From Patescibacteria group bacterium (GTDB taxonomy: Bacteria; Patescibacteriota; Patescibacteriia; Magasanikbacterales; GWA2-37-8), in NCBI GenBank assembly GCA_041661385.1, contig JBAZUP010000001.1, positions 289,709 to 353,708 on the forward strand: a stretch of DNA of 64,000 bases. The letters are read 5' to 3'. The notes under the pieces were generated by a model. The model ran no database searches and was not told the origin of the DNA. It saw only the letters and a program-made list of their open reading frames with translations. Positions 1,925 through 51,545 of this stretch are shown here, in pieces (the first letter of the stretch is position 1; each line of letters begins with the position of its first letter). The position numbers were made by a program, and so were the translations under genes.

Positions 1925-4448
1925 CCTGCTTCTTTTTTCCAACGGCGATAATATTGAAATAGGCCATTGTTAAACATGCGGCAGTTATCGTACTTAGATA
2001 CAAACCAGAGGTAAGAGGAACAAAATGGAATAAAGTTCGAAGTGCGGGCGCTAGCAAAATAACATGAAGAGTAAGCGCCGTAAAGATCACGAGCCAAAGT
2101 AGCACGTGATTATTTTTTATCTGACTAATATCACGACTCATCATAATAACGATTAATTGACCGATAACTAGCGCAGTAAATGACATTGTTCGACCAAGGG
2201 CGATATTACCAATCCATAAACCATAGCCATAAAACGCCAGTGTTAAACCAAGAATACCGGCACTCTGCCAACCAATTTGCCACCAATGTTGGGGACTAAT
2301 AAGCGGCTCCGAAAGCGGTCGGGGCTTTTCAGTCATTCCAATTTTTGAAATCGGATCGCGCTCAAGACCGATGACGGTAGATGGATCACTAAAAAGCTCT
2401 AAAAAAATAATATGAATCGGCAAAAAATATAATTCTTGACCAAATAGAATTGGAATAATCGCAAGCCCGACGATTGGGATATGAAATGAAACTAAAAAAA
2501 TGAAAGCTTTACGTAAATTCGCGTAAATTCGCCTACCCTCTTCGACGGCTTTTACAATCGTTACAAAATTATCATCAAGTAAGATAATCCCGGCGGCCGC
2601 TCTCGCCACGTCCGTTCCTTTTTTACCCATTGCTATGCCAATTGTCGCCTTTTTTAAAGCCGGCGCATCATTTACACCATCTCCGGTCATCGCGACAATT
2701 TCTTCGTTTGCTTGCAGAGCCTCAATAATTGCATATTTTTGTTCGGGCCGAATTCGAGCAAAAATATTTACCTCCCTTACTAAATCTCTAAGCTGTCCGG
2801 GTTTTAAAGCATCTAAATCTTTCCCTTCCAAAACTTTTCCTAAATTTTTAAGCCCCACTCTTTTGCTAATAGCTAAAGCTGTTAAAGCGTGATCACCAGT
2901 TATCATGATTACCCTAATTCCGGCCTTATCACAAACTTCTATTGCCTCCTTTACACCATAGCGAGGCGGATCACTCATAATAATGAGGCCAAAAAATTGA
3001 AGATTATTTGTTTTAAAATCTGTACAGTCGATGATTTCAGTTTTTGCTATCGCGACGACCCGATTACCTTCTTCTGCCATTTTTTCATAAGCCGAAATCA
3101 CTTGTGATTTTGCCAAATCATTTTCGAAGCGACAACTATTAATAACGTTTTCCGGAGCGCCGGCGGTATATTGAAAGCAAGTATTTTCTACCTCCCAAAT
3201 ATGATTTACCATTTTCGTATCAGCATTAAAGGAACTATCTTTTTTAAGGGTATATTTTGAAAAAAAATCATCAGAAATTATTTGTTTGACCTTAGCAAAT
3301 CTTTGCATTTCAATTTCCATCGGATCAATTGCCACCCGCTCCATAGCGAGAACTGATGTCTTGATTAGCGGCGCAATTATTGATAAATCTTTTAATTTAT
3401 TTATTTCGTGAATTTTTCCCTCAAAAAAGACTTTATCGAGTGACATTTTTCCTTCCGTAAGAGTACCGGTTTTGTCCGTGCAAATTACCGTTGCCGATCC
3501 TAATGTTTCAACCATTACCATTTTACGAACTAGCGCCTGACGATTCGACAAACGCCAGACACCCATAATTAAAAAAACACTAAAGACAATCGGAAACTCT
3601 TCGGGAATTATTGCCATCGCAATTGTCAAAGTACCAAGAATACCTTTTAACAAGCCATGACTTTGGCCAATAACAAAACCAATAAACAATGCAGTAATAA
3701 TCGCCGCTGTAGCCAATTGCCTTACTAATTTACTAACCTTTAATTGAAGTGGGGTTGGTTGTTCGTCAATTTTTTCAATCAAATTACCCAACTTGCCGTA
3801 TTGGGTTTCGCCGCCGGTCGCGAGAGCGACCATTTCACCTTCCCCCTGAATAACCATTGTACCTTGGCTCAGTTTAAATTTATCCGACATTTCCGCTTTA
3901 AATTGATTTTTAACTACCGGCGCCGATTCACCAGTTAATATCGATTCGTCTACTAAAAAGCCAGCAGAATTAACAACCACTCCGTCGGCTGGCACCTTGT
4001 CACCTGCGGAAAGATAAATAAGATCACCAGGAACTAAATCACCGATTGAAATTTTAACGAGCATCGCATCTCGATACACTCGGCATTCTTCCACTAATAA
4101 ATTATCAAGAATTTGAATCGCTTTGTCCGTTCGACGTTCTTGAAAATATTGTATTAAAGCAATTGGAATAATAGAAAAACCAAAAATCGCGGTTTCAAGA
4201 TGTGAGCCGATAAAATAATAAATAATTGTCGTTATAAACAAAAAAACCAACATGGGCTCGGAAACTATTCCCCACAAGGTTTGAAACCATGTTTTTCGGC
4301 GCCGACCGGGCCGAAAATTTCCGCCATATTGATTTGTTCTTACCTCAGCATCAAGCGTTGACAACCCCCGGTAAGACGCGGACATCATTGCATTATTGAA
4401 TGTAAGTGCCATAGCCCCCTTATTATAGCATTTTATTGTTGTTTCCAA
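1908..4448 (-). CDS. cation-transporting P-type ATPase (type II, Ca2+/Mg2+-like)
   Basis: DKTGTLT phosphorylation motif, TGES, MTGDGVNDAPALKKA hinge, 8-10 TM segments. Confidence 0.85.
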   Translation of the reverse strand: METTIKCYNKGAMALTFNNAMMSASYRGLSTLDAEVRTNQYGGNFRPGRRRKTWFQTLWGIVSEPMLVFLFITTIIYYFIGSHLETAIFGFSIIPIALIQYFQERRTDKAIQILDNLLVEECRVYRDAMLVKISIGDLVPGDLIYLSAGDKVPADGVVVNSAGFLVDESILTGESAPVVKNQFKAEMSDKFKLSQGTMVIQGEGEMVALATGGETQYGKLGNLIEKIDEQPTPLQLKVSKLVRQLATAAIITALFIGFVIGQSHGLLKGILGTLTIAMAIIPEEFPIVFSVFLIMGVWRLSNRQALVRKMVMVETLGSATVICTDKTGTLTEGKMSLDKVFFEGKIHEINKLKDLSIIAPLIKTSVLAMERVAIDPMEIEMQRFAKVKQIISDDFFSKYTLKKDSSFNADTKMVNHIWEVENTCFQYTAGAPENVINSCRFENDLAKSQVISAYEKMAEEGNRVVAIAKTEIIDCTDFKTNNLQFFGLIIMSDPPRYGVKEAIEVCDKAGIRVIMITGDHALTALAISKRVGLKNLGKVLEGKDLDALKPGQLRDLVREVNIFARIRPEQKYAIIEALQANEEIVAMTGDGVNDAPALKKATIGIAMGKKGTDVARAAAGIILLDDNFVTIVKAVEEGRRIYANLRKAFIFLVSFHIPIVGLAIIPILFGQELYFLPIHIIFLELFSDPSTVIGLERDPISKIGMTEKPRPLSEPLISPQHWWQIGWQSAGILGLTLAFYGYGLWIGNIALGRTMSFTALVIGQLIVIMMSRDISQIKNNHVLLWLVIFTALTLHVILLAPALRTLFHFVPLTSGLYLSTITAACLTMAYFNIIAVGKKKQVIPGR

Positions 4449-26180: not shown

Positions 26181-26639
26181 ATGACAAATTTTGCTGAAAA
26201 TAAAAAAGCCCGGTTTGATTATGAAATTCTTGATACTTATCAAGCGGGAATTTCCCTTACTGGACAAGAAGTTAAGTCCGTTCGTGCCGGTCAAATTAGC
26301 CTGACCGGTACTTTTATTACTTTTCATAATGGAAAAGCAATTTTAACCAACGCCCACATCTCGCCTTACAAGTTTGCGGGACCACTCCCCGATTACGAAC
26401 CTACCCGCAGTCGCACCCTCCTCCTACACAAGCGGGAAATCAATTATCTACGCGGTAAATCCGAGGAACAAGGCTTGACAATAGTGCCTCTTCGGGTGTA
26501 TAGTAGTAACCGTCTTATAAAGCTAGAAATAGCAGTAGCTCGCGGAAAGCACCGTTTTGACAAGAGAGAAACGATAAAAAAACGTGATTTAAACCGAGAG
26601 CTAAAAAAAGATTCAAAATACGGGAGTGACCGGCTTTGA
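26181..26639 (+). CDS. smpB: SsrA-binding protein SmpB
   Basis: ARFDYEILDTYQAGISLTGQEVKSVRAG N-terminus and basic C-tail. Confidence 0.9.
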   Translation: MTNFAENKKARFDYEILDTYQAGISLTGQEVKSVRAGQISLTGTFITFHNGKAILTNAHISPYKFAGPLPDYEPTRSRTLLLHKREINYLRGKSEEQGLTIVPLRVYSSNRLIKLEIAVARGKHRFDKRETIKKRDLNRELKKDSKYGSDRL

Positions 26640-27011
26640 CAGGGAACGTTTAATTCACTTGCCTACCGAGGTGGCCTCCATAGCCTCGTAAATACCTGGG
26701 GGCGACATAATAAGTGCAAACTTGTTATCAAAAGTAAAGGCATCTGTAGCTAACGCTTTCAGCACCTTTGCTCCGGCAATGGCCTAAGGGCCGTCGCCCA
26801 TCATCCGCGCCGGGACCCGACCAGTGCGAAATGGTGTCACTATCCGGGTGTAGTCTATTAGCGGCGGAATGACCGCTAACTGACGAAATACTTCAAACTA
26901 ACCTGTTTCACTTTCGCTTTCTTACGAGAGACAGGCGAAACAACAAGAAAGCTATGTAGGTAGATGGTGCGTTAAGCATCTTCTGGACGCGAGTTCAATT
27001 CTCGCCACTTC
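26622..27011 (+). ncRNA. ssrA: tmRNA (ssrA), 5' end overlapping last ~18 nt of smpB
   Basis: 5' GGGAGUGACCGGCUUUGACAGGGA matches tmRNA consensus GGGGNUG....GGNUUCGACGGG; 3' T-arm GCGAG-TTCAATT-CTCGC then CACTTCC+A pairs 7/7 (one GU) with 5' GGGAGTG; candidate tag ORF ending ...APAMA-TAA at 26786. Confidence 0.7.
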
Positions 27012-27024
27012 CACAAGAAAAATT

Positions 27025-27781: not shown

Positions 27782-28129
27782 ATGACACGTATCAAAGGTG
27801 GCAAACTCCATGCCAAACGTAGACGCGGTATATTAAAACACACTCGTGGCTACAAATGGGGACGTAAATCTAAAATCAAAGTTGCGAAGACCGCCAAGAT
27901 GAAAGCCGGAGCGTACGCCTTCGCCGGCCGTCGCGCCAAAAAGCGCATTAACCGTGGCCTCTGGCAAATTCGTATCAACGCCGCTGTTCGCCAATATGAA
28001 ATCAGTTACAGTCGTCTAATGGGCCTTTTAAAAGCCAAAAAGATTGATCTTGACCGTAAAGTATTGTCTCAAATCGCTCGCGAACACCCGGCCATTTTCA
28101 AGAAAATTGTCGATTCGGCCAAGGCTTAA
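27782..28129 (+). CDS. rplT: 50S ribosomal protein L20
   Basis: MTRIKGGKLHAKRRRGILK... Confidence 0.95.
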   Translation: MTRIKGGKLHAKRRRGILKHTRGYKWGRKSKIKVAKTAKMKAGAYAFAGRRAKKRINRGLWQIRINAAVRQYEISYSRLMGLLKAKKIDLDRKVLSQIAREHPAIFKKIVDSAKA

Positions 28130-48078: not shown

Positions 48079-49686
48079 ATGCCAACACTATACCGAAAAT
48101 ACCGTCCATCTGTTTTCTCCGATGTCATCGGTCAGGATACAATTACTCAAACTATTCAAAATGAAATTTCCTCCGATCGACTTTCTCATGCCTATCTTTT
48201 TTCTGGTCCGCGCGGAGTTGGTAAAACCACACTTGCAAGACTGCTCGCAAAATCTGTCAGCTGCGAAAAACGAAAAAAAGGAACCTTCGAACCCTGCAAC
48301 GAATGCCAAGCCTGCGAACAAATTAATAATGGCCGCCACATTGATATTATTGAAATTGATGCCGCTTCTCAAACCGGTGTCGATAATGTCCGCGAAAATA
48401 TTATTGAAAACGCCGGCATTATGCCGACGGTACTAAAACACAAAATTTTTATAATCGATGAAGTGCACATGCTTTCGACTTCGGCTTTCAACGCACTTCT
48501 AAAAACTCTTGAAGAACCGCCGGCTCATGTTATTTTCATTTTAGCGACCACCGAATTGCATAAAATTCCTGCGACAGTAATTTCCCGCTGTGAAAGATTT
48601 GTTTTCAAAAAAATTCCTTTCGATAAAATGCTCGCCCGACTTAAAAAAATCTGCGGCGATGAAAAGGTCAAAGTAGAAAAAGAAGTTCTAGAGCGAATTG
48701 TTCGAAAAAGCGACGGCGGCTTACGCGATGCCGAAAGTTTGCTCGGCCAAATCCTTTCATTAAATCTAAAAGAAATTTCGGTTGAAGACATTCAAATGGT
48801 TTTGCCGCTTTCGTCCACCGAAAATTTGGTTGAATATCTTCAAAATATAACTGCGGGTGCGCCAGGAAAAGCAATAACCTTGGTAAACAAAATGGTTGAA
48901 GAAGGTGTTGATTTAAATCAGTTTGCCCACGACTTGCTTGAGCTTTTGCGCGCCTCATTACTATTATCTCTAAATACCGACAAGTCTTTGATTAATACCG
49001 ATTTCAATGATGAAACTATTAAAGAATTAAAAAAAATCAGTTCAGCAATTGGTGAAAAAAGAATTGTTTTGATTATGGACTTAACTCTGAAACGCAAGGC
49101 GGATATAAAATTATCACCCCTTCCGCAATTACCGCTTGAGTTGCTTGCAGTTGAAATTTACGATTTAATTTCTTCACCTGGGAATTTGGATAATCCGAAA
49201 CAATCAGAACCTCACGTCGAAAATATCAAGAAAGAAACTGTTACAAACAAGCCTGAGCCGGATTTGATCGTTAAAAAAATCGACGCGCCGGATAAAAGCG
49301 CAATTTCACAAATTACCAACACTATAAAGCAAGCAATTTCTCATATTGCCGACTCAAATATTACTACCACAGTAGAAATGGTGCGTGAAAAATGGAAAAC
49401 CGTAGTTGATAAAGCCTCGGTGACCGTTCCATCACTGAATTTTATACTCGCATCATGTACAATCAGTGAAATAAACGGAAATACAGTTCGAGTGGCTGTT
49501 CCTTTTTCAATTCACAAAGATCGTTTAGAAACCACAAAAAATCGCCAGTTACTAGAAGAGTGCATGCAAAGTGTTTTTTCAGAAAAAATCCGGTTATCTT
49601 TTTACGTTTCAGAAGTAGTAAATAATAATAAAGATTCTGAGGTCTCAAATTTGGCCGCGGAATTTGGCGGCGAAATCGTTAACTGA
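48079..49686 (+). CDS. dnaX: DNA polymerase III subunit gamma/tau
   Basis: GPRGVGKTT Walker A, DEVHML, Zn module CNECQAC, SRC motif. Confidence 0.9.
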   Translation: MPTLYRKYRPSVFSDVIGQDTITQTIQNEISSDRLSHAYLFSGPRGVGKTTLARLLAKSVSCEKRKKGTFEPCNECQACEQINNGRHIDIIEIDAASQTGVDNVRENIIENAGIMPTVLKHKIFIIDEVHMLSTSAFNALLKTLEEPPAHVIFILATTELHKIPATVISRCERFVFKKIPFDKMLARLKKICGDEKVKVEKEVLERIVRKSDGGLRDAESLLGQILSLNLKEISVEDIQMVLPLSSTENLVEYLQNITAGAPGKAITLVNKMVEEGVDLNQFAHDLLELLRASLLLSLNTDKSLINTDFNDETIKELKKISSAIGEKRIVLIMDLTLKRKADIKLSPLPQLPLELLAVEIYDLISSPGNLDNPKQSEPHVENIKKETVTNKPEPDLIVKKIDAPDKSAISQITNTIKQAISHIADSNITTTVEMVREKWKTVVDKASVTVPSLNFILASCTISEINGNTVRVAVPFSIHKDRLETTKNRQLLEECMQSVFSEKIRLSFYVSEVVNNNKDSEVSNLAAEFGGEIVN

Positions 49687-49693
49687 TACATTT

Positions 49694-50518
49694 ATGAAAT
49701 ATATCGCCAGCTTGGCCGTATTTTTTTTACTAATTCCAACTCTATCTCACGCAGCAAGCGTTGAGAAAATTAGCCTGCCGGTTCCGTTTCTTTGGGAAAT
49801 CCCCGATGGAGTTTGGGTTGCGCCATGGAGCGGCGCTTGTGAGGAAGCCAGCATTATCGCCGTTGAAAATTTTTATCTTAAAAAGCCAAAAGCGATAATA
49901 AAAAAAGTTGAAGCAAAAAATCAGATGCTGCCTTTGTTTAGTATCGAAACTAAAATTTTTGGATACAATAGTGATACTAACGCCGCTGAAAACCTAAAAT
50001 TAATTAACGATTACACTTCTTTTGACGCAAAAATTATCGATAACCCTACACTTGAAGAAATAAAAGACGAACTTCGGGCCGGACGTCCGGTTATTTCCCT
50101 ACACTATGGCTACGACCTAAAAAATCCCCGCCATCGCTTCCGCCGTGGCGGATCTTCTTATCATGTGATGGCAATTGTTGGTTTTGATGATGCCAAAGGA
50201 GAGTTCTTGGCAAATGATTCTGAACTACCGGACGGCATTGACTTTCACTATAAATATGCTACAATCATGGACACTCTTCATGATTTTGACCACAAAACTA
50301 AACATGCCGATGGACCACCGCGAGTATTGTTTACCAAGCCAAAAACCATCGTAAAAGCTAACGGGTCAAATAAAATTTTTCTTTTGCGAGATAATAAAAA
50401 ATATTATATTTCCAATCCGGCAGTTTTTAAAAACCACCGCTGGAGTTGGAGTCTCGTAAAAACAGTAGACAAATCAGTTTTAAGCAATTTGGAAAGCGGC
50501 AGCTCCATAAACAATTAA
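49694..50518 (+). CDS. secreted C39-like (papain-fold) cysteine peptidase family protein
   Basis: Signal peptide; WSGACEEASI Cys motif and SYHVMAIVGFDD His motif as in Peptidase_C39_2. Confidence 0.45.
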   Translation: MKYIASLAVFFLLIPTLSHAASVEKISLPVPFLWEIPDGVWVAPWSGACEEASIIAVENFYLKKPKAIIKKVEAKNQMLPLFSIETKIFGYNSDTNAAENLKLINDYTSFDAKIIDNPTLEEIKDELRAGRPVISLHYGYDLKNPRHRFRRGGSSYHVMAIVGFDDAKGEFLANDSELPDGIDFHYKYATIMDTLHDFDHKTKHADGPPRVLFTKPKTIVKANGSNKIFLLRDNKKYYISNPAVFKNHRWSWSLVKTVDKSVLSNLESGSSINN

Positions 50519-50835
50519 ACTCCGAGATCGCCCGCCTGCAACGCTTTGCGTAGCAATGCGGGCAGGTCTAACGGCATATATGTTTTACACTTACGTTCTT
50601 AAAAGCCAAAAAGATAACGAATTGTATATTGGATGGACCGATGACTTAAAAAGTAGAATAAAAAAACACAATGATGGCTTGGTAGAATCTACAAAAAATC
50701 GGAAGCCTTTAATATTGGTTTATTATGAAGCTTGTTTAAATAAAGATGCGGCAATAGCAAGGGAAAAATCGCTCAAAACTGGCTTCGGCAGAGCATATTT
50801 AAAAAATAGATTGAACGACAAACACTCCGAGATCG
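50519..50835. repeat. 12-bp direct repeat ACTCCGAGATCG (50519-50530 and 50824-50835) flanking GIY-YIG gene; second copy is the 5' end of tRNA-Gln
   Basis: Seen directly. Confidence 0.7.
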
Positions 50836-50840
50836 TCTAA
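50580..50840 (+). CDS. stand-alone GIY-YIG nuclease domain protein
   Basis: FYTYVL (GIY) ... LYIGWT (YIG) ... R, E, N catalytic positions; start MFYTY at 50580; overlaps tRNA-Gln 5' end by 15 nt. Confidence 0.7.
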   Translation: MFYTYVLKSQKDNELYIGWTDDLKSRIKKHNDGLVESTKNRKPLILVYYEACLNKDAAIAREKSLKTGFGRAYLKNRLNDKHSEIV

Positions 50841-50896
50841 TGGCAGGACAACGGACTCTGAATCCGTTTATCTTGGTTCGAATCCAAGTCTCGGAA
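50826..50896 (+). tRNA. tRNA-Gln (CTG)
   Basis: Acceptor TCCGAGA/TCTCGGA, anticodon stem ACGGA/TCCGT, loop CTCTGAA, T-loop TTCGAAT; no encoded CCA. Confidence 0.8.
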
Positions 50897-50916
50897 CATA
50901 TAATTTAACACACATA

Positions 50917-50945
50917 AAAATCCCAATGTATAGTCGGGATTTTTT
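50917..50945. terminator. terminator AAAATCCC-loop-GGGATTTT + T-run
   Basis: Downstream of tRNA-Gln and of convergent glyoxalase gene. Confidence 0.5.
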
Positions 50946-50972
50946 GTCTCCAAGCTGCTACTTGTAAATAAA

Positions 50973-51362
50973 TTAAGGTTTTGGTTCAACTGCCTGCATT
51001 ATCGCAAAAATATTTCCTTCCGTATCCTCTGCGCGCGCGATCCAGCCAATTCCCTCCATTTTTTCTTTTTCTTTAAGAATTTTTCCGCCGTTTTTTTTAA
51101 TCGCTTCTGTTACCTTATCAATATCGTCCACATCTATCGTGCAATCATAGGTATGTAATTTATTGTCGGCCGGCCTTTTATACATACCACCGCCAATACC
51201 CGGCTCCCCCTTTTCACCGGTAAAAAGCATCCAATAATCCATACCGCTACCTTCTGCGGCCGGATATTTTTCTATTTTCCAGCCGAGAGCTTTTTGATAA
51301 AAATTACTGGCACGATCAGGATCATCGGCCTGAATTTCAAAATGAATTACTCTATTAGACAT
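50973..51362 (-). CDS. glyoxalase/bleomycin-resistance (VOC) family protein
   Basis: VIHFEIQADDPDRASNFY ... paired beta-alpha-beta-beta-beta modules. Confidence 0.75.
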   Translation of the reverse strand: MSNRVIHFEIQADDPDRASNFYQKALGWKIEKYPAAEGSGMDYWMLFTGEKGEPGIGGGMYKRPADNKLHTYDCTIDVDDIDKVTEAIKKNGGKILKEKEKMEGIGWIARAEDTEGNIFAIMQAVEPKP

Positions 51363-51545
51363 ATGATTATATTAAAAAATAAATAATTATTACATATATA
51401 ATTACTTTAACACAACTGTATGATTTGGCCTTTTATGTCAATAGTATAAACAGTGGACAAAAACCATAAATTTGATTAAAATATATTATAATTATGGCTA
51501 AAAATGCATTAAGCATGGTAACTGCCTTACAAGTAAATTAATAAT

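Follow-up and report, generated by a model that had tools for sequence, protein, structure and literature searches.

Integrase-borne islands and prophages that settle in tRNA genes are kilobases long, encode their integrase and duplicate the 3' end of the tRNA gene, the direct repeat regenerating the gene. Enzymes of the Seg and I-TevI type have more than 200 amino acids (aa), a C-terminal DNA-binding module and a defined cut sequence; SLX1, which contains a RING domain and acts together with SLX4, cleaves flaps, forks and junctions; and for the UPF0213 (YhbQ-type) proteins we know of no established function or mobility. Repetitive extragenic palindromic (REP) sequences and their REP-associated tyrosine transposases (RAYTs) combine one or few nuclease genes per genome with a GC-rich imperfect palindrome that flanks the gene and is also found solitary, in both orientations and nested, and Rickettsia palindromic elements (RPEs, 100-150 bp) lie in-frame in protein genes and also in RNA genes. 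In the Allomyces atp6 element, an endonuclease open reading frame (ORF) reportedly brings a replacement gene end and displaces the resident end. The free-standing GIY-YIG homing endonuclease gene SegB sits in the T4 tRNA gene cluster (PMC2330249), and PMC3787672 cites Paquin et al. 2000 for mobile G+C-rich double-hairpin elements in fungal mitochondrial genomes. Here we describe a GIY-YIG nuclease gene which, together with a 36-bp hairpin-forming palindrome (H), is inserted in the 5' part of a tRNA-Gln(CTG) gene of a Patescibacteria group bacterium, one of the ultra-small bacteria of the candidate phyla radiation (CPR). The locus lies in a stretch of 64,000 nucleotides (nt) of GenBank assembly GCA_041661385.1 (contig JBAZUP010000001.1, positions 289,709 to 353,708, forward strand), which is called the window below, has a G+C content of 41% and supplies the position numbers used here.

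Like the Seg genes of T-even phages, the element carries a GIY-YIG gene outside introns and by a tRNA gene, and a spread with flanking markers by break repair is proposed for both, whereas the CPR element differs from Seg and I-TevI in being a chromosomal, bare 80-aa catalytic domain accompanied by a conserved hairpin and a split remnant of its target. With the integrase islands it shares the location in a tRNA gene and a regenerating direct repeat, but it involves the 5' end, measures about 0.3 kb and has no recombinase, the GIY-YIG gene being the only ORF in the 0.3-kb insert; integrase-type integration was rejected because there is no recombinase and the duplicated part is the 5' end. The asymmetry of REP and RAYT recurs, in that most nuclease genes have H and most H copies have no nuclease gene, yet RAYTs are HUH/Y1 enzymes and REPs are extragenic and are not known to disrupt or replace tRNA genes, whereas the CPR protein is of the GIY-YIG and not the HUH type, which leaves the dispersed palindrome as the half of that system found here. 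As RPEs do, H runs in-frame through protein genes, adding 12 codons in alaS and pepA homologues; we know of no nuclease gene associated with RPEs and of no sequence that they have in common with H. In function the element seems to resemble most closely the gene-end-replacing endonuclease ORFs of fungal mitochondria: in both, an imported terminal segment would keep the gene intact, the resident end is left as a pseudogene and GC-rich hairpins coexist, while the CPR element is found in bacteria, mainly at tRNA 5' ends, with a far smaller nuclease and with its hairpin at a fixed place in the displaced fragment. We found no published description of this nuclease-hairpin-tRNA arrangement in CPR bacteria in a search that left most subscription journals outside, so an earlier description is possible, and the literature searched yielded none of RPE-like in-frame behaviour in these bacteria.

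In the window, a displaced piece of the tRNA-Gln gene, split by H, precedes the nuclease gene, and the intact tRNA gene follows it:

49664-50518, plus strand: C39-family peptidase gene (Pfam PF13529, E = 1.2e-7); upstream flank and synteny anchor
50519-50530, plus strand: left fragment X, displaced tRNA-Gln nt -2 to +10 (ACTCCGAGATCG); exact repeat, abutting the C39 stop codon
50531-50566, unstranded: 36-bp GC-rich quasi-palindrome H (CCCGCCTGCAACGCTTTGCGTAGCAATGCGGGCAGG), splitting the tRNA fragment after nt 10, with a junction ambiguous by 1 nt
50567-50576, plus strand: right fragment Y, tRNA-like nt 11-20 (TCTAACGGCA), 9/10 identical to the intact tRNA (TCTAATGGCA)
50580-50840, plus strand: GIY-YIG nuclease gene, 86 aa (PF01541, E = 1.2e-15); start set by family alignment
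50824-50835, plus strand: right copy of the 12-bp repeat X, nt -2 to +10 of the functional tRNA; exact repeat
50826-50897, plus strand: intact tRNA-Gln(CTG) (ARAGORN; Rfam RF00005, 65.3 bits)
50916-50944, unstranded: terminator-like hairpin with T/A runs on both sides, a consensus match only

The exact 12-mer ACTCCGAGATCG has two sites in the window, those of X and its right copy, and allowing one mismatch raises this to 3 matches against 0.11 expected, a number reached in 0 of 100 shuffles. Since ARAGORN and Rfam map the tRNA-Gln to 50826-50897, the right copy corresponds to its nt -2 to +10, exactly as a sequence-only reading of this DNA had proposed. The upstream copy is bipartite and covers tRNA nt -2 to 20 with H inserted after nt 10; its part at 50566-50576 (GTCTAACGGCA) agrees with GTCTAATGGCA of the tRNA at 10 of 11 positions, and the duplication is thus longer than 12 bp. 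The nuclease ATG starts three bases past Y, and the ORF runs out inside the tRNA gene, its last codons TCC GAG ATC GTC TAA (S-E-I-V and stop) being tRNA nt 1-15. The sequence-only reading had recognised the GIY-YIG ORF between the repeats, its overlap with the tRNA and the GC-rich palindrome at the left end, all of which are real; the ORF has 86 aa from ATG 50580 rather than 87, the overlap amounts to four sense codons plus the stop rather than five codons, and the palindrome ends at 50566 rather than 50568, splits the displaced fragment and is also dispersed on its own. A 94-aa variant of the ORF from ATG 50556 begins within the hairpin, and the alignment of homologues favours ATG 50580.

Empty sites were found in the nearest relatives. 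C39 homologues at 71-80% identity served to fetch these relatives, and four contigs (L081, L083, L084 and L086; C39 peptidase 71-75% identical) share the order TraG-like, DnaX, C39, tRNA-Gln(CTG) with an uninterrupted tRNA. The gap from the C39 stop to the tRNA is 2 nt in L081 and L084 (junction in L084: taaCTCCGAGATCGTCTAATGGCAGG), 7 nt in L083 and 54 nt in L086; it holds no called feature, and neither a GIY-YIG gene nor an H-like motif is present at the tRNA-Gln locus of any of the four. In L081 and L084 the intact tRNA begins at the position taken by X in the window. Because X sits at the resident tRNA start of the nearest relatives, 50531-50823 is an insertion of about 290 bp in the 5' part of the tRNA-Gln(CTG) gene, and the earlier proposal of an insertion that preserved the 5' end of the tRNA is supported by the comparison of relatives it had recommended. 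The relatives may instead have lost the element, since precise recombination between the X copies would also yield an empty site. Filled and empty alleles at one conserved site, here the window and its four relatives, agree with the operational definition of a homing-type element. The target duplication that had been proposed along with the insertion holds as far as a 5' segment is duplicated, and it is probably no classical target-site duplication of fixed length.

The window tRNA-Gln itself looks mosaic. Its nt 1-25 and 66-72 are identical at 32 of 32 positions to those of the empty-site relatives L084 and L086, and its nt 26-65 agree at 37 of 40 positions with L035, the GIY-linked tRNA-Gln of a distant CPR genome, and at 32 of 40 with the empty-site relatives, small numbers for which convergence is possible; the anticodon and T arms, with four compensatory pair changes, resemble L035. 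Such a mosaic would agree with a conversion tract, though the evidence is too slight to rely on. For the window locus, a tRNA intron of the group I or archaeal type was rejected, the downstream tRNA being complete and canonical alone.

The window locus is a typical member of a mini-element widespread in Patescibacteria. A word-indexed search returned 1470 close relatives of the nuclease protein. With E values of 1e-10 or better, an exhaustive profile search found 4005 clusters (50% identity), and almost all of these proteins have 80-130 aa; as to a viral origin of the nuclease, we found three distant phage matches only (39-43% identity). Scanning a single genome of each species turned up at least 600 matching stretches; 586 of them were confirmed, and the locus statistics that follow refer to the best 80 Patescibacteria loci of these, with 87 nuclease gene copies (82 of the 87 ORFs intact). 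A same-strand tRNA starts about -40 to +120 nt from the ORF end in about 61 of the 87 genes (-40 to +25 nt in 51 of these), and the adjoining tRNAs are of 12 amino-acid types, with Gln, Lys and Asn the commonest; tRNAs missed by ARAGORN explain some exceptions (L051, intron-bearing, and L059, at a contig end). The tRNA-Asn in question at L051 (2764-3004), 3' of the GIY-YIG gene, is interrupted in the anticodon loop by a group I intron (Rfam RF00028, 78.7 bits), and at L069 (about 2790-3000) a tRNA-Lys below the gathering score is probably similar to it.

Split remnants of the target proved to be frequent. When the 230 nt upstream of the ORF were compared with the downstream tRNA, with an insert of 20-140 nt spliced out and a score of at least 16 required, a split 5' fragment of that tRNA was found in 45 of 60 loci versus 7 of 118 mismatched-tRNA controls. 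Where the split was well resolved (40 loci), the fragment copies tRNA nt 1 to a+8 almost perfectly, a being the hairpin position: mismatch amounts to 3.9% in its acceptor portion, to 0% between nt 8 and a, and to 3.4% within Y. It reaches the random level (75%) 13 nt past H and is 53% upstream of nt +1. While the hairpin position itself varies over the D-arm region (a = 7-21), the length of the right fragment hardly changes (median 10 nt; 8-12 nt in 30/38); the nuclease ATG lies 0-31 nt past this fragment, and the left edge of the similarity falls at nt -3 to +1 in 28/38. Fragment and intact tRNA differ in the acceptor stem in an allele-like manner (L017, L075, L018, L042, L040 and L074), a concentration of mismatches in that stem being not significant in the high-scoring subset (p = 0.11). 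The C variant of Y (TCTAACGG) is common to the right fragments of L015 and L018 and absent from the window's own intact tRNA. Three loci have H and no recognisable fragments (L016, L041 and L046), and in three others the nuclease gene lies between two hairpin arms (L031, L053 and L077).

Nuclease pairs at least 80% identical always sit on the same target tRNA type, and the nearest neighbour is on the same type in 23 of 55 cases, versus 16% by chance, which suggests that lineages hold one target for a while and switch over longer time scales. An all-against-all DNA comparison, which was used to look for the element ends, showed near-identity limited to tandem copies within a locus. Relatives with other surroundings were also seen. 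At L045 (1075-1370) a second, divergent GIY-YIG gene (MCYVYILCNEETDRYYIGSSNDLDRRLRQH...) stands between a hairpin-split tRNA-Lys fragment and an intact tRNA-Lys, from which we conclude that other GIY-YIG subfamilies share the lifestyle. Family members bounded by AT-rich terminal inverted repeats are found at L060 and L080 (CCCCGTGTAATAAA) and at L070 and L079 (CCCTGTTAAATAA), the L060 element being inserted, at the conserved PSNIA motif, in a gene for a four-helix-bundle ("23S rRNA intervening sequence") protein. In some strains of a Levybacteria species (L212 and L214) an element bearing a serine recombinase lies just 3' of a tRNA-Asn (about 1830) and a GIY-YIG element 5' of the same tRNA, which is therefore a double hot spot.

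Targets other than tRNA genes follow the same plan. At L005 and L031 an NAD-epimerase gene carries the element towards the 5' end of its coding sequence, where the GxGxxG motif is encoded, with a hairpin-split 5' epimerase fragment upstream and the intact gene downstream. L012 shows this plan mirrored: a class II aminoacyl-tRNA synthetase (aaRS) gene is affected at its 3' end, in the order intact aaRS gene, nuclease gene, 12-nt fragment, H and remainder of the old 3' end, which is about 30% diverged from the working copy; this locus is almost an exact bacterial counterpart of the fungal mitochondrial element. At L057 and L101 the transfer-messenger RNA (tmRNA) gene takes the place of the tRNA. 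The general rule is that an intact conserved gene stands beside the nuclease gene and a terminal fragment of it on the opposite side, interrupted by a hairpin that lies some 10 nt away from the nuclease gene. In L047, L076, L078, L034 and L069 (tRNA-Lys) and in L057 (tmRNA) H follows nt 3-4, and since the terminal GGG of H rebuilds the RNA 5' end there, duplication is not needed. The tmRNA gene of the window itself (26622-27014, tag peptide ANLLSKVKASVANAFSTFAPAMA) is without a GIY-YIG gene or hairpin, unlike those of L057 and L101.

Moreover, some targets have been invaded repeatedly. Tandem units are present at L036 (99.7% identical over 310 nt), L021, L055 and L024, and L075 holds three generations of tRNA-Val; L036, L055, L024 and L075 are evidence for successive invasions and replaced tRNAs. 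In L075 (2740-2960) an intact tRNA Val-CAC lies in the loop of a hairpin that sits at nt 21 of an older, complete tRNA-Val, and in L066 (2944-3061) an intact tRNA Gln-TTG lies in the loop between hairpin arms, so that tRNA genes appear to be carried as palindrome cargo.

The nuclease protein scores 58 bits against PF01541 (cut-off 22.6), which makes it a member of the GIY-YIG superfamily, and residues Y3, Y5, Y16, G18, R26, H30 and E62 are invariant in 26 homologues. Family members have 78-90 aa, and the catalytic domain spans the whole length; the 86 aa of the window protein leave no room for the C-terminal DNA-binding module of a classical homing endonuclease. In the AlphaFold2 model (mean predicted confidence, pLDDT, 91; order strand-strand-helix-strand-helix-helix) the tRNA-encoded tail, residues 82-86, is the sole disordered part, and it would most simply be accidental read-through. 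Against the Protein Data Bank the family profile matched 1zg2 (BH0048, UPF0213; E = 1.3e-9), 1ywl (9.8e-7), SLX1 (5e-3 to 7e-2) and I-TevI (0.42), thus the UPF0213 proteins BH0048 and EF2693, then SLX1 and weakly I-TevI, and the top Foldseek matches came in the same order, UPF0213, SLX1 (probability 1.00, query TM-score 0.60-0.66) and the I-TevI catalytic domain. These profile and model comparisons place the nuclease in the UPF0213/SLX1 (URI) clade, nearer to it than to the homing-endonuclease or UvrC branches; the group I intron endonuclease model TIGR01453 gave 16.6 bits, below its cut-off of 56. Family dN/dS values of 0.05-0.1 indicate strong purifying selection, and synonymous sites are already saturated in the most similar pairs.

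The region of H has a fold z-score of -3.8, and H can fold into either of two hairpins that exclude and mirror each other (-11.3 and -11.4 kcal/mol for the window copy, DNA parameters), a tail of 4 nt being left at the 3' end in one and at the 5' end in the other, so that either orientation of H presents the same shape. Natural variants, whose folds were compared sequence by sequence since the MAFFT alignment was structurally inconsistent, keep both folds: ACGC/GCGT, TCAGC/GCTGA and GAAGC/GCTTC pair in one, and positions 16 and 26, which covary (A-T 49, T-A 21, G-C 5, non-Watson-Crick 6), pair in the other. Beside the nuclease gene H is oriented forward in 17 cases, reverse in 15 and is symmetric in 10, a near-equal use which fits the same shape either way, and L006 and L032 have inverted H at the same site. 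An RNA-only role for H is weakened by this equal use of both orientations, and the same shape either way leaves room for it. An H-like motif lies within 130 nt upstream of 56 of the 87 nuclease genes (64%), about 20 times the background of one per about 4.4 kb in those loci. Hairpins in the same slot that are unrelated to H include a double hairpin (TCGCCTCTTCGGCGA and CCTGCCGATGAGGCAGG); in L137 the hairpin lies in the anticodon loop.

H is also a mobile element by itself and widely dispersed. When metagenome contigs were scanned with the 36-mer, positions 16 and 26 left free, at least 120 stretches matched, and the context statistics refer to 81 copies in 80 loci among the stretches listed (L087-L166). 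The exact H variant of the window recurs in metagenome contigs, in many contexts unrelated to one another and in either orientation, none of the H copies being in viral contigs. H is nested in the loops of other hairpins (L015, L023, L092 and L107) and lies within tRNA remnants that have no nuclease gene (L066 and L155). An open frame reads through 21 of 71 H copies, mostly as PARNATHSVAGG, with 12 residues added; examples are L119 5246-5281, L162 68-103 and L099 10901-10936, and the genes concerned are of alaS-like, leucyl-aminopeptidase (pepA)-like and lysine-rich protein types. Direct repeats of 5-13 nt flank 17 of 78 H copies, versus about 1.3 expected, and about 60% of the solitary copies have none. 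Many solitary copies stand amid locus-specific tandem arrays of about 7-nt repeats, such as (AGCTTAT)n, (ATCCAAC)n and (CTGACTA)n (L089, L098, L102, L108, L123, L152, L154, L159 and L164).

Within the 64-kb window we found no second copy of H and no second GIY-YIG gene, and the other copies of the gene with the same flanks, for which the sequence-only reading had advised a search, are thus not to be found elsewhere in this stretch. A 17-nt exact match to the GIY-YIG ORF (50599-50615, TTAAAAGCCAAAAAGAT) lies in rplT (28028-28044) next to an 11-nt match to the tRNA D-loop region (28012-28044 together); as a second element copy it was judged to be chance, being non-colinear and in coding sequence. 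A Rfam 15 scan of 49500-51500 (E up to 1) had the tRNA as its sole match and assigned the hairpin and leader to no family. The promoter scan from the C39 gene to the ORF gave nothing convincing, a promoter-like site at 50238-50265 lies within the C39 gene (consensus match only), and the terminator-like hairpin at 50916-50944 presumably closes a C39/GIY-YIG/tRNA transcription unit.

We think it probable that the locus is a homing-type selfish element, made of a minimal SLX1/UPF0213-like nuclease gene, a hairpin and a split target remnant, and from its layout we infer how it would move. The nuclease may be structure-specific rather than sequence-specific, with hairpin or cruciform H, or H looped out of a heteroduplex, as its cognate substrate, as is suggested by its relatives, which cut branched DNA, and by its tight spacing to H. 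A break would arise within or close to the part of a tRNA gene that encodes the D arm and be repaired from an element-bearing copy by homing or gene conversion, with the flanking tRNA sequences as homology arms. Repair would bring in H and Y along with the nuclease gene and either a new 5' part of the tRNA or a whole tRNA, the resident piece being displaced upstream, so that the essential gene survives. The nuclease gene is presumably co-transcribed with the tRNA by read-through, RNase P freeing the tRNA, and H would also spread alone, presumably mobilised in trans by the nuclease as REPs are by RAYT transposases. The constant right fragment of about 10 nt would then be either the cleavage distance from H or the minimal homology needed beside H.

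Several observations weigh against this homing-type reading. The 80-aa catalytic domain has no obvious means of picking tRNA genes, the intact tRNA beside the nuclease gene keeps the D-arm sequence of the presumed target, which leaves self-immunity unaccounted for, and simple homing does not account for a new target gaining its own X and Y. Among the contigs with identical proteins P0045 and P0068, which always have the same locus in different strains, no jump of very recent date came to light, and in the all-against-all comparison all cross-species DNA matches are at most 84% identical. For 76 of the 81 H copies no GIY-YIG gene lies within 150 nt, so that the functional link between H and the nuclease rests on their association, and because other hairpin families take the same slot (L021, about 2760-2795; L027, about 2850-2885; L137, about 1000-1030; L062), sequence-specific recognition of H cannot be general.

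The lone copies would be expected if two independent selfish elements coincided, a free-standing homing gene with its tRNA copy and, as H, an unrelated palindrome of the kind of RPEs or miniature inverted-repeat transposable elements, mobilised by another agent and tolerated in the dead remnant, where an insertion does no harm. The many contexts of H, even in-frame in essential genes, the distance of 76 of the 81 exact copies from GIY-YIG genes, the filling of the slot by other hairpin families and the close GIY relatives L018 and L021 (90% aa), which have different hairpins at different positions, speak for it. We consider it rather unlikely, given the roughly 20-fold enrichment of H within 130 nt upstream of nuclease genes, the nearly fixed distance from H to the ORF (about 10 nt of target, then 0-30 nt, not anywhere in the remnant), the three loci with the gene inside the hairpin arms and the closest structural relatives of the protein, which cut branched or hairpin DNA. 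A transposition with true target-site duplication, in which a unit of H, Y and nuclease gene enters a staggered break, X is the filled-in overhang and in the survivors the duplication reaches tRNA nt +1, would agree with the 12/12 identity of X in the window, with the excess of 5-13-nt direct repeats at solitary H copies and with a Y variant common to other elements and not to the local tRNA. Repeats of a fixed length at every copy, the mark of a transposon, were not found: their length ranges from 7 to 34 nt with a left edge at tRNA nt -3 to +1, which fits two tRNA copies compared and not staggered cuts, most solitary H copies lack flanking repeats, the acceptor stems of fragment and tRNA differ like alleles (L017, L075, L018, L042) and no transposase-like domain is present. 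Homing or gene replacement is favoured over staggered-cut transposition, which we regard as clearly improbable, because the left edge clusters at nt +1 and because of these allele-like differences.

Very improbable, in our view, is a guide-like targeting, in which X-H-Y, as DNA or as the 5' leader of a transcript, pairs with the complementary strand of the intact tRNA gene to form a three-way junction on H, the SLX1-like nuclease cuts opposite and the flanks program the target. It would explain why fragments stay near-perfect (3-4% mismatch) while synonymous sites of the nuclease are saturated, why the upstream X-H-Y of L036 and L040 is far better conserved than synonymous sites, why almost every locus keeps at least about 8-10 nt of target identity between H and the ORF and how a protein without a DNA-binding domain meets very diverse targets; but it is pure inference, recent remnants alone would give the same pattern, H occurs in both orientations, L016, L041 and L046 have H without recognisable fragments, and cleavage would be aimed at the cell's own adjoining tRNA. 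That nothing is mobile, the repeat being chance or local slippage and the GIY-YIG protein a host housekeeping factor upstream of tRNA genes, is hardly credible: the gene is indeed stable at one locus within a species and under strong purifying selection, yet syntenic relatives have empty sites, the element has hit different targets in different genomes (12 tRNA types, tmRNA, protein genes), some sites were re-invaded in tandem or hold nested remnants, and the repeat is statistically non-random. Going beyond the homing-type reading that we prefer, we suggest tentatively, and with more doubt than belief, that a hairpin with target-copy flanks of about 10 nt lets a structure-specific nuclease cut into conserved genes, be they for tRNAs, tmRNA, Rossmann-motif proteins or aaRSs, and replace each by a functional copy linked to the element, a natural "cleave-and-rescue" system of an undescribed class whose target would be set by the flanks and not by a DNA-binding domain of the protein.

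If the homing-type reading is true, thousands of CPR genes for a "GIY-YIG nuclease family protein" would not be housekeeping genes but would drive a compact mobile element by which tRNA genes and other core genes are rewritten. The tRNA gene fragments and odd tRNA gene contexts in reduced CPR genomes would be explained, a 36-bp palindrome that inserts in-frame into essential genes would be identified, and the long-uncharacterised UPF0213/YhbQ family would gain a concrete in vivo substrate. Further, should the hairpin with its flanks of about 10 nt prove to be the targeting principle, a nuclease of 80 aa would be of practical interest.

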